Below are positions 1,930 to 56,781 of a stretch of DNA of 64,000 bases, in pieces. Below the pieces are notes generated by a model. It was not told where the DNA came from. It saw only the letters and a program-made list of their open reading frames with translations, and searched no databases. Position numbers and translations under genes: made by a program. Position 1 is the stretch's first letter. Every line of letters starts with the position of its first letter. The DNA is from Escherichia phage ECML-117. Location: sequence record JX128258; one strand, given 5' to 3'.

Positions 1930-2307
1930 ATGAGAATGAAGCGTTGTCCGTATTGCCACGATGTGATGCATCTTCCGCATGAAGAGTTCGTGCAGCACAT
2001 GACTAATTGTGATAAGAATCCTAAGAGTGAAAGCCAGCTTGAAGAAAGAATGTTTCTGGTGTCATTCAAGTATTCAGCTTACGATGCACAGCCTGCTTAC
2101 GGTGCACCAAGTGCTGTTTACAGACCATTGAGAAGCGACATTGACTCAATGCAGCTTGCGGCCTGGATTAACGTTAAGGAAGGCATCACTCCGCACTTTA
2201 TCGCGCGCATCCAATCTCAGATTCTACAAATCAAGCGCGAATACAACCGTGACATCACTGAAGTGAAGGTGCTTTCCATTACGCCGATGAATAAGGAGTT
2301 GCCGTGA
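1930..2307 (+). CDS. small C2HC zinc-finger-like protein, paralog (125 aa)
   Basis: Track ORF; N-terminus MRMKRCPYCHDVMHLPHEEFVQHMTNC parallels MKMQRCPHCLSTMRLTAEEYLHHVNVC of the previous gene. Confidence 0.5.
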   Translation: MRMKRCPYCHDVMHLPHEEFVQHMTNCDKNPKSESQLEERMFLVSFKYSAYDAQPAYGAPSAVYRPLRSDIDSMQLAAWINVKEGITPHFIARIQSQILQIKREYNRDITEVKVLSITPMNKELP

Positions 2308-2564
2308 ACAAGGGTCCGATGACTAAGTTGGCCGTTGCCGCGCGGAAGCTTCGACAAGCCGTTAATGGGTCGCGGCCCGTGGTGTTGACACTCGACGACG
2401 CAAAGGCGCTGGTAGAGCTACTCGACGAGCACAACCGACGAAAGAATCTGGAGAACACATTACGCTGGCGCGTCACCCCAGCCGGGCGGGAGAGCGAGAA
2501 GAAAGCTTACTTGCGACGCAAACTAATGTCAGTCGGCCTTCACGAAGAGGCGAAGAAGATTTGA
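2304..2564 (+). CDS. hypothetical protein (86 aa, GTG start)
   Basis: Track ORF; GTG start overlapping upstream stop. Confidence 0.4.
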   Translation: MNKGPMTKLAVAARKLRQAVNGSRPVVLTLDDAKALVELLDEHNRRKNLENTLRWRVTPAGRESEKKAYLRRKLMSVGLHEEAKKI

Positions 2565-2586
2565 TTCAAAAAGGTGAGCTAAATGC

Positions 2587-2614
2587 TTGCCTTTTTATTT
2601 GCCTGTATTATACT
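2587..2614 (+). promoter_or_regulatory. sigma70-like promoter (TTGCCT-N16-TATACT), second copy of cassette
   Basis: Near-identical to cassette at 1033-1082; precedes gene at 2643. Confidence 0.45.
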
Positions 2615-2642
2615 TGTTTCATCAAGCAAAGGAGAATTGATT

Positions 2643-2948
2643 ATGAGTACCGAAGCGATGAAGAAAAAGGTTTCGAATGCTTTGCAAGAAGCCGTGAACT
2701 GTGGTGCCATTAAAGAGTTCAAGGAGACTCAAGAAGGCGGTGAGCCAGTATTCTTCTTTAAGAATAAAAAGGACGGTGTTGCAGCAATCATGTTGTTAAA
2801 GAATAGTGATGACACATTTATCCTTTGCGTCGGAGGATATGACCTTATCGTTGATGATGTATTTATCAATTGTGCCGACGGTCTTAACCCTATGCTGACA
2901 TTTGAGCGTCGCACCATCCGTGTTGCAACGTTTGGAGGGAAGTTATGA
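2643..2948 (+). CDS. hypothetical protein (101 aa)
   Basis: In frame with track ORF 2583..2948; ATG at 2643 preceded by AAAGGAGA; N-terminal region similar to product of 3587..4099. Confidence 0.5.
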   Translation: MSTEAMKKKVSNALQEAVNCGAIKEFKETQEGGEPVFFFKNKKDGVAAIMLLKNSDDTFILCVGGYDLIVDDVFINCADGLNPMLTFERRTIRVATFGGKL

Positions 2949-3130
2949 GTACCGAAGTCCACAACGCATCAGCCTTGGTTAGCTTTTACCGTAACAAAGG
3001 CGTGTCGCTCGTTAAAACGCCGCAAGGGATGTTGTTCTTTGGCACGCGATTCCTGAAAGCATCGGAGCGTGAAACGCTGTCCAAGTTCGACCAGAAAACA
3101 TTGCACGCAGTTTGGAGAAGACAACAATGA
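2945..3130 (+). CDS. hypothetical protein (61 aa)
   Basis: Track ORF; start overlaps upstream stop. Confidence 0.4.
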   Translation: MSTEVHNASALVSFYRNKGVSLVKTPQGMLFFGTRFLKASERETLSKFDQKTLHAVWRRQQ

Positions 3131-3420
3131 GACTAAGCCTAGCGCAAATTCAAACATTGTACCGGATGGAAGACGGAACGCCATACATGCTGCGCGGCGA
3201 CCGCAAGAAGGCTTATGAAAAGCGGCCATCACTGTTTCACGACATCAATGCGCCATCAATCCCTGTCTTATTCCGGTTGGGCCTTGTTGATTGGGCGGCG
3301 CCAGGAGAGAAAGACCCGACGCGCTATTCATCCGTGGTGATGACAAAAGCAGGTCGCGCGGCATTAAAAGAGATTAAAGAAAATATGGCTGGAGGTAAAT
3401 ATTATGACATCAAATCTTAA
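3127..3420 (+). CDS. hypothetical protein (97 aa)
   Basis: In frame with track ORF 3112..3420; ATG at 3127 overlaps upstream stop. Confidence 0.4.
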   Translation: MRLSLAQIQTLYRMEDGTPYMLRGDRKKAYEKRPSLFHDINAPSIPVLFRLGLVDWAAPGEKDPTRYSSVVMTKAGRAALKEIKENMAGGKYYDIKS

Positions 3421-3568
3421 AGCCCGTTTATTATTCATCAAGCCGCATGTGCCATATAAGATTAGTAAGCGCACCTGGCTTAACATTTACAACCGCAGCG
3501 GCGACCGTTGTTTGTACAAGGCAAAGCGGCGCAAGAAGGTATATTCTTACACAACATCCATCAAATAA
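3404..3568 (+). CDS. small basic protein (54 aa), not in ORF track
   Basis: ATG at 3404 with GGAGGT 7 nt upstream; translation MTSNLKARLLFIKPHVPYKISKRTWLNIYNRSGDRCLYKAKRRKKVYSYTTSIK; below the track size cut-off. Confidence 0.4.
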   Translation: MTSNLKARLLFIKPHVPYKISKRTWLNIYNRSGDRCLYKAKRRKKVYSYTTSIK

Positions 3569-20724: not shown

Positions 20725-20734
20725 AGAGGAAGTT

Positions 20735-20872
20735 ATGCAAAAGATTATCCAGTCACGTTACGTTAAAGTGCGAAATATTAATTGCAACTCTTTGCTTTCT
20801 TGGAAATGGGCTGTTTACGACTCGATGCTGATTGGCGTTTTAGTTGCTGGAGTGCTTTTTAATATTCACTGA
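20735..20872 (+). CDS. small membrane protein (45 aa), not in ORF track
   Basis: ATG at 20735 after AAGAGGAAG; translation MQKIIQSRYVKVRNINCNSLLSWKWAVYDSMLIGVLVAGVLFNIH with one hydrophobic segment. Confidence 0.35.
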   Translation: MQKIIQSRYVKVRNINCNSLLSWKWAVYDSMLIGVLVAGVLFNIH

Positions 20873-20905
20873 ATCGCCTGGCAATGGATTGTCGCAGGAT
20901 TTTAC

Positions 20906-21180
20906 GCGTATAATGACGTATCATCCGTATCAAGTAAGTAGTTGTTTTCAAAAGAATCTTACGGATGATACGGATGATACGCGTTGCCGCGATACTTTAT
21001 AGGAATTCAAATAAATTAATTTAAAATTATATATCTAATTTAATTTTATTTTTTTATAAACTCTTATATATGAAAAGTATCCGTATCATCCGTATCATCC
21101 GTAGCACACCAGTGATAGCGCGGCTTATACACCGATACGGATAAAAAATACGCCTCATCTTATCCGTATCATCCGTATCA
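20906..21180. promoter_or_regulatory. iteron/AT-rich control element, copy B
   Basis: GCGTATAATGACGTA at 20906-20920; CTTACGGATGATACGGATGATACGCGTTGCCGC at 20958-20990; AT-rich tract 21001-21075; inverted triple ATCCGTATCATCCGTATCATCCGTA at 21079-21103; inverted double at 21162-21180. Confidence 0.55.
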
Positions 21181-21289
21181 CACTAATTAAGGCGCGGCTA
21201 TATCGGCTGTTATACATATTCAAACCATAATTATTGTTTGCCTAAGTTTTTTTCATTAGATATAATACACAATACTTATTTGAGGGTGG

Positions 21290-24482: not shown

Positions 24483-24597
24483 TTGCTGTGATTACACAGT
24501 AAAACACATGGGGCGTGGTCGAAAGGCTTCGCCCCATATCAATAGACCTCAAGGGCTGTAGGGGCTTATCTGAGGCTTATATAAATAGGACTACAAA

Positions 24598-25062
24598 ATG
24601 CCAAAATACATCGTTTCAACTATGTCTATGTCAGTCAACTACACTTTCTATACGGAAGTGAAAGAAAACCCGAATGCAAAAGCTGGTTCAGGCGCTCTTC
24701 CAAATATTCGCAAACAGATTCTGATCAAGGGCGGTGCTGGTCTTACTTCGGCAACTTCCGGCTTTGGTGAAATGGCAAAAGGCGCTGATGGTGCACCTTT
24801 GTGGACTCCTGAAGGAATCGTCACCGTTGTAAGCGATGCTGATTTTGAACATTTAAAAGATCATCACGTATTCAAGCAGCACCTTGAAAAAGGTCTGGTT
24901 AAAGTGGTTAACCACGACATCGTTGGCAATCATAAAGCTGTCGCTAAAGAAGTGCGCGGCATGTCAGATGACCCGTTCGCACCTATGACGCGTGAGACGG
25001 CTGACAAGCGCATCAAGGTTAAATTGAGCGGCGAACAAGAAGATGATTTGTTCCGCGTTTAA
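24598..25062 (+). CDS. head-associated protein (154 aa)
   Basis: Track ORF; AGGACTACAAA upstream; position after capsid gene. Confidence 0.45.
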   Translation: MPKYIVSTMSMSVNYTFYTEVKENPNAKAGSGALPNIRKQILIKGGAGLTSATSGFGEMAKGADGAPLWTPEGIVTVVSDADFEHLKDHHVFKQHLEKGLVKVVNHDIVGNHKAVAKEVRGMSDDPFAPMTRETADKRIKVKLSGEQEDDLFRV

Positions 25063-26997: not shown

Positions 26998-28536
26998 GTG
27001 ATCAGTCAATCTCGTTATATTAAAATTGTATCAGGGGTCGGAGCAGGCGCGGCTGTTGCAGTTCGCAAACTGTCGCTTCGCGTCATGACTTCTAATACAG
27101 TTCTGCCGCCAGGCATTGTAGCAGAATTTTCAACGGCTGATGCTGTTGGATCATATTTCGGTTATTCTTCCGAGGAATATAAGCGCGCAGCATTATATTT
27201 TGGATTCATCAGCAAGCAAATTAACTCGCCTGATTCAATCAGCTTCTCGCGTATTGTTTCAACTGCGATTCCAGCAATGGTAATCGGTGATACTGAGCCT
27301 AAAGTGCTTGCTACGTTTCAAGCATTCACTGGCGCTATATTAAGCATCACTTACGATGGCACAGACTACCTGACTGACGCAATTAACCTTTCAGCGGCGA
27401 CAAGTCTGGCGAATGTTGCTGAACTTCTGGAGACGGCAATCAATACTAAATTTGCAGCAGAAGGTGGCACATCGGTGCCTGCACTTGCTGATGCAGAGGT
27501 GTATTGGAATGCTAATACTCAGCAGTTCACGCTGGAAGCAGCGCCGTCTACCGCTGGTGCAGGCAACCTGTCTATCAACGTCACAGGCCAACCGACCGAC
27601 CCGTCTCAAGCGTTGGGTTGGACCACCACTGGCACCGTAACAGTTGCAGGCCAGGGCGTTTCAAGTCCGGTAGAAGCAATCGCAGCATCTGTGGAAATCT
27701 CCAACAACTTCGGCTCATTCCTTTTCGCTGGAGCAGACCGAACTCTGGAAGAGATTACCGCTGTGGCAGCGTGGACTCATTCGCAGAATAATATGTACAT
27801 GTATTTATTCTCGACTTCTTTTGCTAATATCGGGTCATACTACACCGCTCTGAAAGGGTACTCAGGCGTTGGCATGATGATTCGCGCAACTAACCTTGCA
27901 AACGATTACATCGACCAAGCACCTGCTGAAATCCTCGCGGCAACAAACTATAATACTGTGAATGCAACTCAAAACTACATGTATTATCAGTTTGACACTC
28001 GCAACGTGACTGTTTCAACTGACTCTCGCGCAGATACTGCTGATCAAAACCGTGCCAACTACATCGGCGCTACTCAGCAGGCAGGACAAACATTGGCGTT
28101 CTTCCAGCGCGGTGTATTGATGGGCGGGTCAACTGCAGCAGTCGATATGAACACTTATGCCAACGAGATGTGGCTCAAGTCCGCTATTACATCTCAGCTG
28201 TTCAGCATGTTCTTGAATCTTGGTCGCGTCCCTGCTAACGAAGAAGGGAAAGCGACTGTACAAGCCATGATTCAGGTTGCTGTGGATAACGCAAAAGTAA
28301 ACGGCACCATCTCTGTTGGCAAGGCGCTGACTGAGATTCAGAAACAATACATCACGCAAACTTCCGGTGACAACACTGCTTGGCGGCAGGTTGAAACTAT
28401 CGGTTACTGGCTGACTGTAGATTTTGATACTGAAACCACTTCCGATGGGCGCACCGAATACTATGCAACATACACGCTAATCTACTCTAAAGATGATGCT
28501 GTGCGTCGCGTTGAAGGTCGTGACGTTCTTATCTAA
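26998..28536 (+). CDS. tail sheath protein candidate
   Basis: 512 aa; lies immediately upstream of a 155-aa tube-like gene; GTG start on track, with an alternative internal Met. Confidence 0.5.
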   Translation: MISQSRYIKIVSGVGAGAAVAVRKLSLRVMTSNTVLPPGIVAEFSTADAVGSYFGYSSEEYKRAALYFGFISKQINSPDSISFSRIVSTAIPAMVIGDTEPKVLATFQAFTGAILSITYDGTDYLTDAINLSAATSLANVAELLETAINTKFAAEGGTSVPALADAEVYWNANTQQFTLEAAPSTAGAGNLSINVTGQPTDPSQALGWTTTGTVTVAGQGVSSPVEAIAASVEISNNFGSFLFAGADRTLEEITAVAAWTHSQNNMYMYLFSTSFANIGSYYTALKGYSGVGMMIRATNLANDYIDQAPAEILAATNYNTVNATQNYMYYQFDTRNVTVSTDSRADTADQNRANYIGATQQAGQTLAFFQRGVLMGGSTAAVDMNTYANEMWLKSAITSQLFSMFLNLGRVPANEEGKATVQAMIQVAVDNAKVNGTISVGKALTEIQKQYITQTSGDNTAWRQVETIGYWLTVDFDTETTSDGRTEYYATYTLIYSKDDAVRRVEGRDVLI

Positions 28537-28583
28537 ATAATTGCCGCCGTAATTGGCGGCCATCTCTCTGAGAGGAATCTGTA

Positions 28584-29051
28584 ATGATTAACGTTTCCGG
28601 TTTTGGCGCTTCGATTCGTTTAGTGGCATCAAACACTTTTCCAAATGGTGTAACCCTTTCTGATTTCGCAGATGATGCTGATCCGATTGACGCGCCTGAT
28701 CTTCAAATCTCTGAAGCGGCAATGGGATTGAACGGTGACTTGGTAGTCTGGAACCGTGCCAACCCTCTTGAAGTAGGCGTCAACATCATCCCTACTTCTG
28801 AAAGCGATGTAAACTTAGATGTTCTGGCAGCAGCTAACCGTGTAGGCAAGCGCAAGAACTCTGCGAAAGACGTGATCACCCTTATTCTGACCTACCCTTC
28901 TGGCATGGTCATCACACTGAACAAGGGCACTTTGACGACTGGTTCAGTGATTCCTGGCATCCAGTCTCAGGGTCGTGTAAAAACACGTCAATATCGCTTT
29001 AAGTTTGAGAACGTAGTCAAAACTGGCGTGAGCAACCAAGAGATTTTATAA
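28584..29051 (+). CDS. tail tube protein candidate
   Basis: 155 aa; AGAGGAATCTGTA upstream; paralogous to 30002..30499. Confidence 0.5.
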   Translation: MINVSGFGASIRLVASNTFPNGVTLSDFADDADPIDAPDLQISEAAMGLNGDLVVWNRANPLEVGVNIIPTSESDVNLDVLAAANRVGKRKNSAKDVITLILTYPSGMVITLNKGTLTTGSVIPGIQSQGRVKTRQYRFKFENVVKTGVSNQEIL

Positions 29052-29380
29052 TGTATCAAATACCACTTGACAGCGTACCTAACCAGAATATCAGCTTTAA
29101 CGTTGACGGTGCTTATTGGCAGCTGCACATATTCGCCGCAATTGAGCACATGTGCGCAGATGTTTACCGCAATGGCGAATTGTTGATTCAAGGGGTGCGC
29201 TGTTTTGGTGGTGTACCAATGGTGCCTTATAAATATCTCATGATTGGGTACGGCAACTTTATTTTTGACAGCGTACCCGATTATGAGAATTTTAACTCTG
29301 GCGGCTGTAATTTATATTACATGTCAGAATCTGAGTTGGCTGAATTCCAGAAAACTGCTGAAGCGGAGTTTGCAATTTGA
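29051..29380 (+). CDS. hypothetical tail protein (109 aa)
   Basis: Track ORF. Confidence 0.4.
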   Translation: MYQIPLDSVPNQNISFNVDGAYWQLHIFAAIEHMCADVYRNGELLIQGVRCFGGVPMVPYKYLMIGYGNFIFDSVPDYENFNSGGCNLYYMSESELAEFQKTAEAEFAI

Positions 29381-31032: not shown

Positions 31033-31592
31033 TGGACTTTGTTTCGATTCTGCTTTCTGGTCAATCTCTGACCATAACGAATGAGTCGACAGGGCTTCCT
31101 GTCTGGACAAGGCTTTCTCCAGTGTCTGCAGAAATAACATCACCAGCAGAAACTACTCAATTTCCCCTTGCTGGAACGGCGATGCAGGTGGTGGAAGTAT
31201 CAAGCACATCCTCAGTAAGCAATTTACAGGCGGCAAAAGTAATAATGCCAGCGCACATGGCGCTAAACGTAATTTGCAACGACCAATCGACTATTGAAAA
31301 CATAATTAATACATTCGACAATGATGAAGTCACATTTTCGATAACTTCTCGAAGCATAATTGCAAGCAAAATGTCGATGTCTGATGTCGAAATAACTCAG
31401 TCAGAAGAAAACCTGAATGGAGTCTCAATTGTAATAACATTTGAACAGACGTCATTTAGTATTCAAGGAAGCTTTGACCCTAAACAGTCCGCAGATGAAT
31501 CGTCAAATGGCGTGGCTATTAAAGAGCCAGTCAGTTTGACTACAACTGTGAGTTCGTTATATAATAAAATAAAATCAACAGTAGGAATATAA
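31032..31592 (+). CDS. hypothetical tail protein (186 aa)
   Basis: Track ORF. Confidence 0.4.
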   Translation: MDFVSILLSGQSLTITNESTGLPVWTRLSPVSAEITSPAETTQFPLAGTAMQVVEVSSTSSVSNLQAAKVIMPAHMALNVICNDQSTIENIINTFDNDEVTFSITSRSIIASKMSMSDVEITQSEENLNGVSIVITFEQTSFSIQGSFDPKQSADESSNGVAIKEPVSLTTTVSSLYNKIKSTVGI

Positions 31593-32013: not shown

Positions 32014-34194
32014 GTGTCTGACTCATTAGAAAAATTTGTTCTTCAATATACGGTGGACTTGAAAGAGTCCATCAATCGTCTTGAGCAATTGCAAGATAAG
32101 GTTGATCAGACAAACAAAAAGGCAAAGTCCGCTGGTAAAGACTTCACCGGAGCATTCAAAGATGTGTTTGGTGAGTTGAAGCCTCTCACAGCTGAACTGG
32201 GGTCTATTGACGGAATCCTTGCGCGGCTTACTTACCGCTTTGCCGCGCTCGTTCCTGTTGTCGCAGGATTGGCTGTCGTCGTCAAATCCATTGTTGATGT
32301 TCGAAAAGAATACGAAGCGCAAAGGAAGCTGGGATTTGAAGCAGGACTTTCACCAATTGGCGTGGAGCAATTACAGCGACAATTGAATGAGAGTTCAGGC
32401 GGAGTTCTTGGTGCGCAAGGGTCAAGGGATTTAATCAGCAAGGCTTCTAATCTCGCATTCAACGCATACACCAACCCCGATGTGATGAACAAGGACAACT
32501 TGTTGCTGAACAAGATGGGGACCAGTCCTTTCAACAGTAACGGCGGCATAAAAGACACGAACCAGCTGCTTGATGAAATTGGCACAAAGCTGAGAAGTGT
32601 GAATGAGCAAACCGCTCGTGCTATTGGTGCTCTGGCAGGTTTTACCGCCGATGAAGTCCGTGCGCTTCGTGAGCGAAATCAATCAGTCAAAGAAAGCACC
32701 CGTATAAGCGACGAAGAAACCGCGAAGCTGCAAAGACAGCAGGCTGCGCTTGAAACGATACGAAACAGCATGGGGCAAATTCAAGAAGACTGGCGACGCA
32801 TTGAACTGGTAATCGGTGAGAACGTGATGCCAGCATTCTCGACGCTTGTCAGTAAAACCGCCGATACAGTCGAAGGATTCCAGATGATGTTCCAAAGAAT
32901 GTCTGATGGATGGTCCGAATTTGTCGACAATTTCATTGCTGACTTGAAGCACCCGTTTGATAAACAGGCGGCTGTTAACGAGCGCCACGAGCGCGCCGTT
33001 GATAGATGGATCACACAGATGGCAGACGGCGATGTGAAACGCCAGAGGAACCAGGAGCAAAACGCGGCTGAACAACGTTCTGCGCAAGCACTTTTCACTC
33101 GCGACATCAACCTGTTTTCAAGTGCCGTTTCAACCTTTGCTGGAGTCATTGATGAGCGACAAGCATGGGCTGCATGGGCTGGTGAGATAGGACGAAGCGC
33201 AGGCCAATCCGCAATGCCTGGCACGCCAGCACTAAGCACTGGTGCGACCGTAGGCAACAACTTGGGGTCAGGAAATCCGACTGCATATGACTCAATCTAT
33301 GAGGAAGCCTCCAAGCGTTATGGAATCCCTGTTGCGATGATGAAGGCCGTCACAGAAGTCGAATCTGGATTCAACCCTAATGCCGTAAGCGGAGCAGGTG
33401 CGACCGGATTGATGCAAATAATGCCTTCCAACTTCAAGGGGCTTGGCATTACAGACGGTAACGACCCAAGACAAAACATTATGGGCGGCGCTCAACTTCT
33501 CAAGGAATATTTAACTGCTGCCAATGGCGATTGGAATCTTGCGCTGACTATGTATCACGGCGGATATGACCGCAGCGGATGGGGGAAGAACACCCGTGCA
33601 TACCCTGGCAAGGTAATGGCCGCTCTCGAACGACAGGCAAATGGAGAATACGCCACGGGAGCGCCGCAAGGTGCACCAGTGACTCCAGTCCTTAGCGGTA
33701 GCGGAGTAGAAGCGCCGAAAGGAAGCTATGCACCAGTACAAGGCCAATCCCGCCAAACGGTGCAATACAGACAGTTGCAAGAAGCCATTGCAGGATACCT
33801 AAACGTGCCAGTTGAGCAGTTGATGCAAGGGCAAGTTAACAAAGGCGATATTGACTTTGCTCAAACTTACCTTAAACTTGGAACGCAAAGGGATTATATT
33901 AAAAACATGCAGCTGGCTTCAACTCCAGGCGTAAGACCGAACATTCAGGCCGAAGCGATGAAGAATGCTCGTCTTGCCGCATTCCAGCTTGAGGCGTTCC
34001 AGAAATACGGCGGCGACCTCTCCGCGAATAGTCGACCTGGTGGGCGTGATATTACTATGGGTCAGAAAAACGTTGTCATCAACGTCAACGGCGCTCAAGA
34101 CCCACGAAGCACGGCTATTGAGACTAAGCGCGTGCTTGAACAAGATGATATCAACGACATAAACAACCTTACTGCTACACCTTTGAAGTGGTGA
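32014..34194 (+). CDS. tail tape measure protein with lytic transglycosylase (SLT) domain
   Basis: 726 aa; helical N-terminal half; EVESGFNPNAVSGAGATGLMQIMPSNF, an SLT-type catalytic region; GTG start. Confidence 0.65.
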   Translation: MSDSLEKFVLQYTVDLKESINRLEQLQDKVDQTNKKAKSAGKDFTGAFKDVFGELKPLTAELGSIDGILARLTYRFAALVPVVAGLAVVVKSIVDVRKEYEAQRKLGFEAGLSPIGVEQLQRQLNESSGGVLGAQGSRDLISKASNLAFNAYTNPDVMNKDNLLLNKMGTSPFNSNGGIKDTNQLLDEIGTKLRSVNEQTARAIGALAGFTADEVRALRERNQSVKESTRISDEETAKLQRQQAALETIRNSMGQIQEDWRRIELVIGENVMPAFSTLVSKTADTVEGFQMMFQRMSDGWSEFVDNFIADLKHPFDKQAAVNERHERAVDRWITQMADGDVKRQRNQEQNAAEQRSAQALFTRDINLFSSAVSTFAGVIDERQAWAAWAGEIGRSAGQSAMPGTPALSTGATVGNNLGSGNPTAYDSIYEEASKRYGIPVAMMKAVTEVESGFNPNAVSGAGATGLMQIMPSNFKGLGITDGNDPRQNIMGGAQLLKEYLTAANGDWNLALTMYHGGYDRSGWGKNTRAYPGKVMAALERQANGEYATGAPQGAPVTPVLSGSGVEAPKGSYAPVQGQSRQTVQYRQLQEAIAGYLNVPVEQLMQGQVNKGDIDFAQTYLKLGTQRDYIKNMQLASTPGVRPNIQAEAMKNARLAAFQLEAFQKYGGDLSANSRPGGRDITMGQKNVVINVNGAQDPRSTAIETKRVLEQDDINDINNLTATPLKW

Positions 34195-34198
34195 TCAT

Positions 34199-35071
34199 TT
34201 GAAAAAGAGAATCCTTAAAGTCACCTTATCCATGCCGGATGGCACAAGCCAAGTGCTTGACGAAGGATTGATGCTTAGATGCCGAATCAAAAAGGCAGCA
34301 CTTTCCGTTCAGAATAAGGCCACGATTGAAGTTGCAGGATTAACAGGGTACTTGAGAGAGTACCTGCTTTCCAACTTCACGGCATTCAACAAACGTCTGC
34401 GTGATCAAGGCCAGCTGGCGGCGAACTACGTCAACGTGACTATTGAAGCTGGATACAGAGAAGGGAGTGTAATCAGCAGCAACTTGGTATACAAGGGACA
34501 GGTGACGACAGTTGAGATAACAGCGCCGCCGCCGAATATTGTCATCAGAATCACTTGCTACACCAACCAAATAAACAGAACTAAGTTCATCACTCAAGCT
34601 GCGCCATCCAACCCGACTTTCAAAGAGTTTGTGGAATGGTCTGCAAAACAAATGGACATCGATACTGTTATTTGTGATACGTCGATTAACAATCAGCGAC
34701 TTGTGAATCCAGGAAGAACGACATATGTTGCTGCTGCGCTGCTGCTTGAGATCCAGAACTATCAACGCAACTCCATCGCGGCATACATTGATGACGATAC
34801 GTTAATTGTCAAGGATAAAGACAAAATTCTAAATCCAGACCAGATTACGGTCATTGAGGAATTTGTCGGAATACCGATGTGGAACGAGTGGGGTGCAGAC
34901 TTCACTTGTATGTATAACGCAGATTTGAAGCTTGCACAAGGTGTTAAATTCAAATCAGTCTTAAACCCAAGCTTGAACGACACCACATTTGTCATCATGC
35001 AACTTGAATATGATTTAGCAAGTCGTGATGATATATTTACGGTGACGGGCGGCGTTGCACCATCGGCATAA
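34199..35071 (+). CDS. tail/baseplate hub protein candidate (290 aa, TTG start)
   Basis: Track ORF immediately after tape measure. Confidence 0.4.
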   Translation: MKKRILKVTLSMPDGTSQVLDEGLMLRCRIKKAALSVQNKATIEVAGLTGYLREYLLSNFTAFNKRLRDQGQLAANYVNVTIEAGYREGSVISSNLVYKGQVTTVEITAPPPNIVIRITCYTNQINRTKFITQAAPSNPTFKEFVEWSAKQMDIDTVICDTSINNQRLVNPGRTTYVAAALLLEIQNYQRNSIAAYIDDDTLIVKDKDKILNPDQITVIEEFVGIPMWNEWGADFTCMYNADLKLAQGVKFKSVLNPSLNDTTFVIMQLEYDLASRDDIFTVTGGVAPSA

Positions 35072-35073
35072 AT

Positions 35074-35595
35074 ATGAGAAAGAATAAAATAATCGACTTG
35101 TTTGGCGTGACTTATGAAATTCATCAATTCAGTGCAATAGATGCATTTGAAATGGTGGATGACATAAGCATATTGACTCCACTTGAATTATTAAGTGAAT
35201 GTTATGTGATCAAATATGACGGAACTAAAGTCAGATTAAATTCTGAGAAGGCCATCAGTGAAGAAGTGAAAAGTGTGCCAAATCACTTGCCGCCCAACCT
35301 TGTATTGAAAGTTCTAATGGAAGCGGTGAAGAAGCACAATTTTGGATTCCTCAGTGATTGGAAAGGCACTAAGATTCCAAATAGATTCTTGGCTGACGTA
35401 CCGACCGTAGAGCCTAATTATCTTGAGCCGATGGTTGCAAGCCTAATAAACAATGGTCTTGCTTCGTTAAAAGAATTGGAAGAATATTATTCATTGCGTG
35501 ATGCATTCGCTATGTTTGATGGACTAATAGCAAAATCACTTAATGAAGCCTACTCAAACGAAGCTGCCATTAAAGAATCAAAGTCAAATCGCTAA
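35074..35595 (+). CDS. baseplate-associated protein candidate (173 aa)
   Basis: Track ORF. Confidence 0.4.
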   Translation: MRKNKIIDLFGVTYEIHQFSAIDAFEMVDDISILTPLELLSECYVIKYDGTKVRLNSEKAISEEVKSVPNHLPPNLVLKVLMEAVKKHNFGFLSDWKGTKIPNRFLADVPTVEPNYLEPMVASLINNGLASLKELEEYYSLRDAFAMFDGLIAKSLNEAYSNEAAIKESKSNR

Positions 35596-35608
35596 AATAT
35601 TGCTTATA

Positions 35609-35651
35609 GACTCCTTATAGATTATAATTTGTTGATCAGATATAAGGAGTC
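35609..35651 (+). promoter_or_regulatory. 11-bp perfect inverted repeat enclosing TATAAT and the RBS of 35653..36381
   Basis: GACTCCTTATA (35609-35619) and TATAAGGAGTC (35641-35651) separated by 21 nt; the right arm contains the AAGGAG Shine-Dalgarno. Confidence 0.5.
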
Positions 35652-35652
35652 T

Positions 35653-36381
35653 ATGATGGCAGAAAAGTTAACCCAACTTACAAGCCCCAACCAAACTGAC
35701 AAATCAAGTATGTTTGCCGCGCTGCAGGGAATGCTGGACCGTGGCAAGTATACCACTGACGGCATGATTCCTGCACAAGTAATATCTTATGACCGCAAAC
35801 AGAATTTAGCAGTCATAAAGCCTGTTATTCATTTCGTAAGTCTTGATGATAAGCCAGTGGAGCGTCAACCTTTGGTGTCAATTCCGGTACTGGCAATCGG
35901 CGGCGGCGGCTTCGTGATCAACTTCCCTTTGAAGGAAGGGGACTTGGGCTGGATATTCGCTGGCGACCGAGAGTTGTCGACATTCCTTGAAGAATTGAAG
36001 CCGACTGCGCCTACCAATGGCCGTGTAAAAACTTTCGCTGATGGACTGTTCATACCGGATGTATTCCGAAAATACACCATAAGCGGAGAGGATGCAGGGT
36101 CAATGGTAATTCAATCCCTCAGCGGCGCTGTGAGAATTGCACTAAGCGATGACTCAATAAACATAACTGCGTCTGCTGGAGTAAACGTCAAGACCCCGAT
36201 AACCACTATCGATCAACAATTGATAGTAAATGGAAAGGCAACATTCAATGGTGGGATAGAAGGCAAAGAAGGAACGACGGCAACGCTTCCGACTGGCACA
36301 ACGGTCGGCGGCATTGATGTATCCACTCACGGGCATATCGGTAACGGGCCTGGAAACAGAACTGGGAATATGATAGAATGA
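35653..36381 (+). CDS. baseplate central spike candidate (gpV/Mu gp45-like)
   Basis: In frame with track ORF 35629..36381; Gly-rich beta-like body and C-terminal VSTHGHIGNG (HxH apex-like). Confidence 0.45.
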   Translation: MMAEKLTQLTSPNQTDKSSMFAALQGMLDRGKYTTDGMIPAQVISYDRKQNLAVIKPVIHFVSLDDKPVERQPLVSIPVLAIGGGGFVINFPLKEGDLGWIFAGDRELSTFLEELKPTAPTNGRVKTFADGLFIPDVFRKYTISGEDAGSMVIQSLSGAVRIALSDDSINITASAGVNVKTPITTIDQQLIVNGKATFNGGIEGKEGTTATLPTGTTVGGIDVSTHGHIGNGPGNRTGNMIE

Positions 36382-37649
36382 GTGCACAATATTCTTACAT
36401 AGTAAGCACTGGTGTGATCACCATTGACACGGCAGATTTATTGGCTGATGTTCAAGGTGAATGGATTGAGTCTTTAGGGGTCGGGCTTGATGTTGATGCT
36501 TCGACGCCGCAAGGCACGCTAATCGCAACAGAGACATTGGCAAGAACTTCAGTGATGAAGAACAATGCCGAATTGGGAAGCCTCATCAACCCTAACTACT
36601 CATATGGAGTATACCTTGATGCAATCGCGGCGCTTCTTGGCATCGAGCGCACAAAGAATGTAAGCACAATGTTGAAAGGTGTGACTGCAGAGGGAACGCC
36701 TCTGCTGGAAATTCCTGCTGGAAGTCTTCTTACTGATTCAAATGGTACATACTGGTATGTGCTGGAAGACGTTCAAATCACTTCGACTGGCAAGACAAGT
36801 AATATGACTCTTGCGTCAAAAGATTATGGATCATTCACTGTTGCGCCTGATGAAGAGTTTACAGTGGTGCAAGGTTATGACGTCATCGGATGGTCAAGAA
36901 CTTATTCAACGTCGGCAACAACGACCGTGCCAGGAACACAATACATGAGCGACGGAGCATTAAAGGCCGCTCGCGTTAAGCGTCTTTACCAGCAGGGCAT
37001 TGCATCACTTGGTGCCATTCGCGCTCGCGCCATGTCGGTCGACGGTGTAGAATCTGTGATGGTCGTGGAGAACGACACAGGAGCGCCTGGAACGGTGCGC
37101 GGCATCACCTTCTCAACGCCTAACGGTGTTTGGGTGTGCGCAAGCGGAACATTTGACAAGCAAGTTTTTGCGGAGACGATATTCAAGGCGAAGATGGGCG
37201 GTCAACCTTGGGACTTTGGCGCTGCTAATCAAGGTGATCCGGTAAACTCTCCTGATGGAATCGAAGTGGTCGATGCAGAATCACAGCTGTCTTATTTCGT
37301 CAAATTCAACAATGCAGTGATATATGATTTGTATGTTGATATAACCGTTTCAAGAGGAACGGCTACCGCTGATGCTGAGTCTATCATTGCCGCTGTGCTG
37401 AATTACGGCAATGGCAATTTTAACGGTGAGCAGGGATATACAGTAGGTCAATCTCAATCTTCTTTTGAAATCGCTTCAGCAGTATCCTGTGAATATCCAG
37501 GACTTTATATCAAAGATTGCAAAATTGCAGCAGTCAAAAGCGGACAGGCAGCGCCAACTTATCCTTCCGATTATGGCAGCGAGTGGATTGCCAATCCATG
37601 GGATAAGGCCAATACTATGCGCGGCTTCATCAACGTTAAATTTGTGTGA
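36378..37649 (+). CDS. baseplate J-like wedge protein
   Basis: 423 aa; follows spike candidate; size and position typical of gpJ/gp6 family. Confidence 0.5.
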   Translation: MSAQYSYIVSTGVITIDTADLLADVQGEWIESLGVGLDVDASTPQGTLIATETLARTSVMKNNAELGSLINPNYSYGVYLDAIAALLGIERTKNVSTMLKGVTAEGTPLLEIPAGSLLTDSNGTYWYVLEDVQITSTGKTSNMTLASKDYGSFTVAPDEEFTVVQGYDVIGWSRTYSTSATTTVPGTQYMSDGALKAARVKRLYQQGIASLGAIRARAMSVDGVESVMVVENDTGAPGTVRGITFSTPNGVWVCASGTFDKQVFAETIFKAKMGGQPWDFGAANQGDPVNSPDGIEVVDAESQLSYFVKFNNAVIYDLYVDITVSRGTATADAESIIAAVLNYGNGNFNGEQGYTVGQSQSSFEIASAVSCEYPGLYIKDCKIAAVKSGQAAPTYPSDYGSEWIANPWDKANTMRGFINVKFV

Positions 37650-40404: not shown

Positions 40405-42189
40405 ATGCCAACACTTATTAACAGACCTTTCGCGCAAAGCGGTGATGTATCCGTGGTGCCGGATGCAAGCCCAAGCGGTTATGTGAACTTCCAGCGCGGC
40501 TACACTCCTGACTATGCGCTTGCGCTGGAGGCCGGAAACGTCGCCGCGAAAGCTGTTGAGCGCGAATCGATGAACTGGTTGCTGAATTTGATTACAGACA
40601 ACCTTATGTTTATTCAAGATCATGGCGCTCAACAATATTTCTCTTCTGACTTGAAGCCGGATGGATACCCGAAAAACGCCATTGTTGTCAGCAACTCTGG
40701 AACGCCTTCAGCACCTGAGTGGCGCATCTTTCAAAGCGTGGTCGACGGCAACACAAGCGCCGTACCAGCTAACGGAGAAACGGAATCTTGGCAGGAATTA
40801 ACACTGCCCAGCGAAGCGCGAAAATACATTCCTATGCCTGCTGGCGGCGATGCGCAAAACCCGTACTTCGTTCGCGGATTGATTTCAAGCTTTGTTGACT
40901 TCGATAATATTACGACTTCCACAACTATCGTCATTCAATCCGATGCCGTCGCCGCTCTTTGCTCTAACATCCCGAATGCGGTTGGCGCAACGAAGGTTGC
41001 AGGTCGACTGCAGGTCTGCGCTTGGCAGGTCAATGCGCAGACCTTTGCTTTGCAGCAATATACATCAATGAATGGCTATTTGTTTACTCGCTCTTATACT
41101 TCTGGTGCTTGGAGTGCTTGGATTCAAAATGCCACTGTTCAAGACGTGCAAATCGGAACTCCAAACCTTGCATCTGGTAAAGGCGCGCAAGATATAATCC
41201 TCACCGTTCCAGCAGGGTATTCATGGCCGCCTTCTGCGGGTAGTCGTTTGACCATCGTCAATGACGTGACTACTACCGGACCTGTCACCGTGACCATTGG
41301 TGTAAACAAAGTTGCCGTTCTTGGATTCGACGGCGGCGAGTTACCAGCTGGCGCTATCGTAGGCTTGTTGCCATTCACCATCATTTATGACGGCGCTGTT
41401 TGGCGTCTCCTTCAGGCATTTGGCGCGGCGCAAATCGGCGTTGATGCTACTGAGCCGCAACAGTTTGTTACAAAGCGCCAACTCGATGCTTTGGCTGCGA
41501 AGTTGATCACTATGGGTGACGTATTCGAAGTCGGTGAGACTCGATTCCTTACCAACGGAACCAACCCAAATACTAAACTGGGCGCTTACGGTCAGGTATG
41601 GACACGACTGCCTGATAACATGGTCATTAGAACATCTGGAACGTCGCGGAACGGTCTTGCCACTGGCGGCGCGGACTCTGTCACCCTTACCGCTGCCATG
41701 CTCCCTCTTCACAACCACAGCGTAAACATAACTACGCGTCAGAGCGGCCCATGGTCCAATACTACTGGAGATGCTGGAAATCACAACCACACAGGCGATA
41801 CCAGTCAGAACGGCGCTCACTCTCATGGTATGGATGCAGCAGGAAATCATTACCATGACAGCGGTTGGGGAGAGGCGTATGCGGACCAAGCGCGTTACGG
41901 AGTTTATGACGGTACTCACAACAACCTTGGGAGTGCAAGGTCTGATTATGATAACTACAAATACAACACTTCAACTAATGGCAACCACGTCCATAATATT
42001 CAATCTTCTGGATCACACACTCATGGTTTGAATATAAATTACGCTGGCAATCACAGCCATGGCTATACCCTTCCCGCTCACACTCACGATGTGGTCGGTA
42101 ATACTGGCGATGCAGGGCAGTCGGTGCCAACGGCTGTTGCGACTTTGCCGCGATACGTTGTTTTGAATGGCTGGTACAGAAGCGCATAA
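40405..42189 (+). CDS. tail fibre with His-x-His repeat tip
   Basis: In frame with track ORF 40348..42189; ATG at 40405 after GAGGAACGG; C-terminal GNHNHTGD, GAHSHG, GNHYHD, GNHVHN, GSHTHG, GNHSHG, AHTHD repeats as in metal-binding fibre tips. Confidence 0.65.
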   Translation: MPTLINRPFAQSGDVSVVPDASPSGYVNFQRGYTPDYALALEAGNVAAKAVERESMNWLLNLITDNLMFIQDHGAQQYFSSDLKPDGYPKNAIVVSNSGTPSAPEWRIFQSVVDGNTSAVPANGETESWQELTLPSEARKYIPMPAGGDAQNPYFVRGLISSFVDFDNITTSTTIVIQSDAVAALCSNIPNAVGATKVAGRLQVCAWQVNAQTFALQQYTSMNGYLFTRSYTSGAWSAWIQNATVQDVQIGTPNLASGKGAQDIILTVPAGYSWPPSAGSRLTIVNDVTTTGPVTVTIGVNKVAVLGFDGGELPAGAIVGLLPFTIIYDGAVWRLLQAFGAAQIGVDATEPQQFVTKRQLDALAAKLITMGDVFEVGETRFLTNGTNPNTKLGAYGQVWTRLPDNMVIRTSGTSRNGLATGGADSVTLTAAMLPLHNHSVNITTRQSGPWSNTTGDAGNHNHTGDTSQNGAHSHGMDAAGNHYHDSGWGEAYADQARYGVYDGTHNNLGSARSDYDNYKYNTSTNGNHVHNIQSSGSHTHGLNINYAGNHSHGYTLPAHTHDVVGNTGDAGQSVPTAVATLPRYVVLNGWYRSA

Positions 42190-56716: not shown

Positions 56717-56781
56717 TTTCGTTTCCTCTATGAGTTCTGCTTCAATGATTAAAGTATACGCCCATTGAAGCAGAAAGCAAA

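Follow-up and report, generated by a model that had tools for sequence, protein, structure and literature searches.

A predicted promoter nested in a hairpin over the baseplate spike gene's ribosome-binding site in Escherichia phage ECML-117 and its PB1-like relatives

In Escherichia phage ECML-117, translation of the baseplate central spike gene probably depends on the promoter from which its transcript originates: RNA begun at the gene's own promoter would be open for initiation, whereas RNA reading through from upstream would be masked. We give this reading a probability of roughly 60%. The proposed element is a σ70-type host promoter nested in a hairpin, the 5′ arm of which would lie in the promoter spacer, while the 3′ arm would form the 5′ untranslated region (UTR) with the Shine–Dalgarno (SD) sequence and the start codon. 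RNA begun near position 35635 would lack the 5′ arm, leaving the ribosome-binding site (RBS) free. RNA from further upstream (tail-tube, tape-measure and hub genes) would contain both arms, and the helix that these form, at about −25 kcal/mol, would conceal the RBS. Under this mechanism, the spike would be translated essentially only from own-promoter transcripts, and the wedge gene behind it, being translationally coupled, probably obeys the same rule. The hairpin would insulate two modules of the tail operon from each other at the level of translation, and the untranslated read-through RNA may also be exposed to Rho or to decay. All positions refer to the window, that is, the whole 64,000-nucleotide stretch of sequence record JX128258 that was analysed.

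The window belongs to a Wifcevirus-type E. coli myophage, a relative of the Pseudomonas PB1-like phages, and is matched at 91%–98% identity by 27 Wifcevirus-type E. coli/Shigella myophages (WFH, WFC, FEC19 and Bas98-101 among them). The spike gene (35656..36381, plus strand) encodes a Gp138-like N-terminal domain (Pfam PF18352, 4.4e-15) and is followed by a Baseplate_J wedge gene, the start of which overlaps with the stop codon of the spike. In the window and in phage NH-4, the wedge gene forms a single ORF, unlike in PB1, where a possible ribosomal slippage is annotated as joining ORF42A and ORF42B just 3′ of the spike (2162-2215 / 2208-3461 of the PB1 locus, L015). Upstream of the spike, the ORF list places a plus-strand gene at 35074..35595 (173 aa), a homologue of PB1 ORF40 and 14-1 gp41 that matched no Pfam family and is itself preceded by an E217-gp41-type baseplate hub gene. 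Between the ORF40-like and spike genes lies a gap of 57 nt, the only sizeable one in this tightly packed tail/baseplate run. Any RNA covering the ORF40-like gene must run into the hairpin.

The earlier note on this DNA had described a perfect inverted repeat with 11-bp arms that would sequester the RBS, and these arms, GACTCCTTATA at 35609-35619 and TATAAGGAGTC at 35641-35651, were found exactly. The 21-nt spacer between them was likewise confirmed, with the TATAAT that had been noticed in it at 35623-35628. The perfect repeat is longer than first reported, reaching 14 bp on the plus strand. Its left (5′) arm, ATAGACTCCTTATA (35606..35619), holds the anti-SD CTCCTT, and its right (3′) arm, TATAAGGAGTCTAT (35641..35654), holds the SD AAGGAG at 35644-35649. 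When the repeat is considered as RNA, a U·G pair and a 4-bp outer helix extend the pairing back to 35601 and on to 35661, giving a helix of approximately 19 bp with both candidate ATG codons inside; a 5-bp inner stem is also present. Two details of the earlier description need small corrections: AAGGAG occupies 35644-35649, and the ATG at 35653, which had been taken as the start codon, is a less likely alternative than the second ATG at 35656. The latter has a 6-nt spacing from AAGGAG, its equivalent is the annotated ‘baseplate spike’ start in Bas101, and it aligns with the MAEK N-terminus of the spike homologues.

The folding energy calculation that had been proposed as a check yielded −26.7 kcal/mol, compared with −10.9 ± 2.45 kcal/mol for shuffled sequences (z = −6.45), and none of the 200 shuffles folded as well as the window hairpin. 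After GC correction, the hairpin ranked third among 25,574 windows of 70 nt taken from both strands. The computed RNA fold pairs the SD and the start codon at an opening cost of ca. 22 kcal/mol, bearing out the earlier claim that the hairpin would occlude the RBS in mRNA. This cost depended strongly on where the RNA began. For read-through RNA, opening positions 35644-35658 required 22-23 kcal/mol, with a mean unpaired probability of 0.02-0.08, whereas for RNA starting at 35633-35637 the cost was 4.5-5 kcal/mol and the mean unpaired probability ca. 0.6. From these thermodynamics and the covariation described below, we infer a translational effect of the hairpin. An Rfam covariance-model search of 35300-35900 on both strands returned no match at E ≤ 1. 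A search for intrinsic terminators across 34000-37500 found no terminator-like site, and an intrinsic (Rho-independent) terminator was also rejected as an identity for the hairpin itself, whose stem is AT-rich and followed by GATGGCAGAAAAG, in place of a GC-rich stem with a U-tract.

Other parts of the window are also strongly structured. The strongest fold (40976-41045, −40.8 kcal/mol) consists of two adjacent hairpins in a long tail-fibre-like ORF. The second-strongest local fold lies in non-coding DNA (20725-21289), where a 16-bp perfect inverted repeat (CGTATCATCCGTATCA / TGATACGGATGATACG) and several ATCCGTATC / GATACGGAT repeats occupy 20917-20981 and 21084-21180, just 5′ of a promoter-like TTGCCT-17-TATAAT (21238-21266). 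These repeats may serve as a regulator-binding array or mark an origin-like region. A further stem of 17 bp with a 16-nt loop (29253-29268) was found at 29236-29285, inside the gene at 29051-29380 (GC-corrected z = −4.9), and its two G·U pairs suggest a sense-strand RNA structure.

Judged from the sequence, the most fitting role for the TATAAT within the loop is that of −10 box in a σ70-type promoter, TTGCTT-17-TATAAT (35600-35628, plus strand), with its −35 hexamer at 35600..35605 and its −10 hexamer at 35623..35628. Promoter geometry, 7 nt past the −10 box, predicts transcription to start within the loop at about A35635 (35633..35637, plus strand), which is 6 nt 5′ of the right arm. Exact matches to TTGCYT-N17-TATAAT occur three times in the window (16501, 21238 and 35600), each 5′ of a plus-strand gene; approximately 0.7 matches would be expected with one mismatch permitted. 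Across both strands of the phage, the general promoter form is TTGCYT or TTTACT, a spacer of 16-17 nt and TATA[AC]T. This consensus sits 20-35 nt 5′ of many gene starts, and one candidate internal late-operon promoter, at 31536-31565, is the positional analogue of P016/P017 of Pseudomonas phage 14-1. Among the 23 promoter-like sites in the window, strong complementarity between the segments before and after the transcription start site (TSS) was found only at the spike site (z = −4.9), where the hairpin's left arm exactly fills the promoter spacer. Because the left arm lies 5′ of the predicted start, only read-through RNA can form the hairpin, a point that the earlier note overlooked. A 13-bp perfect inverted repeat elsewhere in the window (TTCTGCTTCAATG / CATTGAAGCAGAA, 56735-56775) brackets the −10 box of a promoter on the minus strand (TTGCTT-16-TATACT, 56780-56753). 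Its SD lies 3′ of the 3′ arm, leaving the RBS unmasked, and the duplex test there was marginal (p = 0.027).

The homologous promoter has been mapped in Pseudomonas phage 14-1. Promoter P018 was located by ONT-cappable-seq, with its TSS at 28318 on the plus strand (Putzeys et al. 2024; PMC10914365). It was classed as σ70, its transcription unit TU018 comprises gp42 (spike) and gp43 (PMC10914365; bioRxiv supplement Tables S3/S5), and it drove msfGFP expression in E. coli as well as in P. aeruginosa (PMC10914365). P018 occupies the same ORF40-like/spike intergenic position as the window promoter, and its −10 box TATACT (28306-28311), homologous to the TATAAT in the window, lies 32 nt before the ATG. 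In the sequence of 14-1, a left arm, CCTGGGAAGGC, was found at 28294-28304 and a right arm, GCCTTTCCCA, which extends into the ATG at 28337, at 28329-28337; the mapped start, 7 nt past the −10 box, falls between the two arms. Compared with the window, the 14-1 stem is shorter (9-14 bp with a G·U pair) and its predicted penalty smaller (ca. 6 vs. ca. 17 kcal/mol), and the two intergenic sequences can be aligned at the promoter boxes only. Putzeys et al. (2024; PMC10914365) presented P018 as a promoter only and did not mention a surrounding hairpin or RBS masking. A motif in the left arm of PB1 and 14-1, CTGGG, corresponds to the core of the element labelled ‘other motif’ among 14-1 promoters and was considered as a phage-specific promoter motif; this lead was dropped because P018 is classed as σ70, is active in uninfected cells and starts 7 nt after TATACT.

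Transcription across the hairpin would be expected from the lack of terminator-like sites at 34000-37500 in the window, together with the tight packing of the genes, and the site at 31536-31565 is a candidate upstream promoter for such RNA. In 14-1, no transcript end was mapped in the late plus-strand region. Against read-through, the longest of the long reads from P016/P017 in 14-1 end near 24.5-24.9 kb, short of the hairpin. A literature search for time-resolved expression data on 14-1 or Wifcevirus found none.

Spike homologues with 33%-60% identity occur in the Pseudomonas PB1-like phages (Pbunavirus), Serratia phage MyoSmar and many uncultivated phages, and a gap of 55-66 nt was found at the same place in PB1, NH-4, 14-1 and MyoSmar. 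Approximately 150 loci were fetched, and the 61 with an ORF40-like gene directly 5′ of the spike gene were kept, representing 38 distinct intergenic sequences and ca. 24 lineages. The ORF40-like gene lies 3′ of the spike instead in five loci (L062, L064, L111, L113 and L119). Nearly all lineages carry a TATAAT-like hexamer 29-39 nt 5′ of the start codon, preceded at a spacing of 17-18 nt by a −35 box that is usually TTTAC[TC] and otherwise TTGCYT. Across the ca. 24 lineages, the two promoter boxes and their spacing from the ATG have been retained, and in a 22-lineage alignment the −10 element (T-A-x-A-x-T) and the ATG were the sole invariant features. In one locus (L049:1053-1101), a TATAAT lies only 6-7 nt or so before the spike ATG, which is itself within the 3′ arm, so that a transcript from such a promoter would be leaderless.

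The spacer and the 5′ UTR could not be aligned across lineages, yet they were often complementary within a lineage. The energy of the duplex that the pre-TSS segment forms with the stretch between the start site and the AUG was compared with that of 200 shuffles, and pairing was significant (p ≤ 0.01) in approximately 12 lineages: Wifcevirus, L022, L035/36, L006, L123, L038, Pbunavirus, L037, MyoSmar/L024, L030, L026 and L005/8. Within Pbunavirus it was significant in most members (e.g., NH-4 and 14-1), while PB1 itself gave p = 0.03. The arm sequences of these ca. 12 lineages are unrelated to one another. In ca. 11 other lineages, the same 200-shuffle test detected no significant pairing between the pre-TSS segment and the RBS, and the promoter was kept; three lineages have no intergenic gap at all. 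Since about half of the lineages lack the pairing and three lack the gap, the hairpin is dispensable within the family and is an optional layer on a conserved promoter.

The summed energy of the cognate duplexes was −412.5 kcal/mol, compared with −278 ± 15 kcal/mol when partners were permuted among lineages, and the observed value was reached in none of 20,000 permutations. Permuting the partners is a fair control because base composition and the promoter and SD motifs are retained. For 11 of the 24 lineages, the cognate partner took first rank in one direction or in both. A single consensus structure for counting covariation was tried (alignments A3 and A4) and set aside; the alignment-free cognate/permuted test and pairwise comparisons were used because the register of the stem relative to the −10 box varies by lineage. 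Between L006 (TCTCTCCCGGTG / CACCGGGAGAGA) and L123 (TTATATCCGGTG / CATCGGATATAA), five double (compensatory) changes were found in the arms with the loop otherwise conserved, and between the window (GACTCCTTATAG / TATAAGGAGTC) and L022 (GACCTCTTACAG / TGTAAGAGGT) there were three. Within Wifcevirus, 23 of 27 records share the same 81-nt region, which carries no weight because the coding sequence on either side is conserved to the same degree (99%). The variants seen there comprise two with loop changes and one with an uncompensated right-arm change, an A-to-C substitution at 35642 in vB_Eco4M-7, at the apical end of the stem.

The placement of the arms was also consistent among the structured lineages. 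The 5′ arm lies 5′ of the predicted start in every one of them, and in all except L033 the 3′ arm extends over the SD, the AUG or both. The difference in opening cost between read-through and own-promoter RNA was largest in the window (Wifcevirus; 17 kcal/mol), followed by L022, L035, L006 and MyoSmar (11-13.5 kcal/mol), L123 (7 kcal/mol) and Pbunavirus (6 kcal/mol; 11.2 vs. 4.7 kcal/mol when the experimental 14-1 start site was used), and was ca. 0-4 kcal/mol in the unstructured lineages. The lineage-specific complementarity in these relatives argues that pairing with the RBS is under selection. In favour of a purely accidental palindrome around the promoter, with no function, about half of the related lineages lack the pairing. 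However, when the window was dinucleotide-shuffled 200 times, just 5 of the shuffles contained a perfect inverted repeat with arms of 14 nt or longer and a loop not exceeding 60 nt (mean 0.03). Moreover, the same architecture, built from differing sequences, recurs in ca. 12 lineages with a summed energy that no permutation matched, making chance a very improbable explanation.

The earlier note had also suggested that spike translation might be coupled to translation of the upstream gene. Under such coupling, the hairpin would throttle the spike until opened by ribosomes ending the ORF40-like gene, and the TATAAT would be idle. The RBS is indeed buried, and the upstream stop is 5-10 nt from the base of the helix. 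However, the stop codon (35593-35595) lies 10 nt before the 14-bp stem (8-24 nt in relatives), so that a terminating ribosome would open the helix base only: it would reach ca. 35605-35608, whereas the SD pairs with 35611-35616. The variation of this distance among lineages also speaks against coupling, as does the finding that nothing else in the region is as conserved as the TATAAT and the −35 box and that the homologous site in 14-1 is a mapped, active promoter. These observations leave the coupling proposal improbable.

Another suggestion, that of an operator around the TATAAT, places the function in the DNA: the arms would be operator half-sites for a regulator of phage or host origin, or a cruciform would clamp the −10/+1 region, switching the spike promoter. 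The arms do flank the −10 box and the start site, and the repeat at 56735-56775 shows that a second perfect repeat in the window flanks another −10 box without covering an SD. Nevertheless, the TATAAT is a conserved −10 box whose 14-1 homologue is mapped and active in vivo, and the arm sequence has no other copy in the 64 kb at ≤ 2 mismatches. In addition, 35 bp separate the centres of the half-sites, and a loop of 21 nt disfavours cruciform extrusion. Across lineages the arms differ completely in sequence but are still complementary, and the 3′ arm always tracks the RBS. Furthermore, 12 of the 15 structured lineages showed better folding of the sense strand than of the antisense one (−26.7 vs. 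−19.0 kcal/mol in the window), and G·U pairs, which function only in sense-strand RNA, are used in several stems. The strand asymmetry and the G·U pairs favour an RNA-level role over a DNA-level one, though modestly. A role in the DNA appears quite improbable on these grounds, and the operator suggestion was not sustained.

An RNA-level role might instead lie mainly in processing or stability, with the hairpin serving as an RNase III target at which the polycistronic late mRNA is cut, or as a 3′ stem-loop guarding the upstream mRNA against exonucleases, and its overlap with the RBS being a by-product of limited intergenic room. This explanation fits the covariation and the sense-strand bias as well as the length of the window helix (ca. 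19 bp plus the 5-bp inner stem), and stem-loops also follow the capsid-like and sheath genes of the operon. However, the 3′ arm covers the SD/AUG and the 5′ arm is an anti-SD in nearly all structured lineages, despite less constrained sites being available; the Pbunavirus stems (9-14 bp) are short for RNase III; and no 3′ end was mapped near the site in 14-1. We consider it rather unlikely that processing or stability is the main role, which could nevertheless coexist with translational masking. The stem-loops mentioned are GC-rich, lie at 24510-24540, 24580-24588 and 28541-28562 and directly follow the capsid-like and tail-sheath genes. Nearby, a T4-late-like TATAAATA box precedes the gene at 24598.

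Masking that depends on the promoter of origin has precedents. In phage T4, the genes e (lysozyme), soc, 49 and I-TevI have an RBS-sequestering hairpin that encloses a late promoter (McPheeters et al. 1986; Uzan and Miller 2010, PMC3014915). Long T4 transcripts sequester the initiation region, and transcripts from the internal promoter, which lack the 5′ strand, are translated (PMC3014915). The window resembles these T4 genes in that its SD and both ATG codons form part of the paired 3′ strand in a stable helix and that a promoter just 5′ of the RBS, whose start is predicted in our case, overlaps the DNA coding for the 5′ strand. The two differ in their promoters: that of the window is of the host σ70 type with −35 and −10 boxes, whereas the T4 late promoter (TATAAATA) is gp55-dependent and has no −35 box. 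The presence of both boxes and the activity of the homologue in uninfected E. coli indicate that the window element is T4-like in its working and is not a T4-type late-promoter element. Read-through RNA in the window would derive from neighbouring virion genes, unlike the early-gene transcripts of T4, and the window phage belongs to an unrelated family (the PB1-like supergroup), in which the translational effect is a predicted one.

A similar arrangement protects the insertion sequence IS10. Incoming transcripts carry a segment from before the IS10 start site that pairs with the RBS, and transcripts from the element's own promoter, which lack this segment, are translated. This ‘fold-back inhibition’, reportedly described by Davis, Simons and Kleckner in 1985, shields IS10/Tn10 against outside transcription. 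The logic proposed for the spike gene is the same as that of IS10, with RNA begun outside being masked and own-promoter RNA being free. The setting differs, as IS10 is a transposable element protecting its transposase and the present case lies inside a phage structural operon. Promoter-in-hairpin masking is a mechanism of a known kind and seems to be undescribed for the PB1-like phage group. The genes on either side of the hairpin are both virion genes, and a reason for uncoupling them is not evident, which counts against the masking reading.

A broader interpretation, which we regard as speculative and rather doubtful, is that an ancient host-type promoter midway along the tail operon and a co-evolving anti-RBS in its spacer form a translational insulator throughout the PB1-like supergroup (Pbunavirus, Wifcevirus, Myosmarvirus and many uncultivated relatives). 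Such an insulator would divide the late operon into modules that each have their own dose or timing, and it might bring upstream transcription units to an end by Rho-dependent polarity without a terminator. The arrangement would then represent a general principle for dense phage operons and would not be peculiar to T4.

If masking by promoter of origin is confirmed, the logic known from T4 and IS10 would extend to the unrelated and therapeutically important PB1-like phages and their E. coli and Serratia relatives, and to an ordinary host σ70 promoter within a structural operon. It would give a concrete reason for the internal promoter P018 of 14-1 and would mean that promoter spacers can hold a second, RNA-level code. 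RNA-seq coverage over such junctions would then fail to predict protein output. For phage engineering, spike and wedge genes placed under an upstream promoter would be silenced unless the left arm were deleted.
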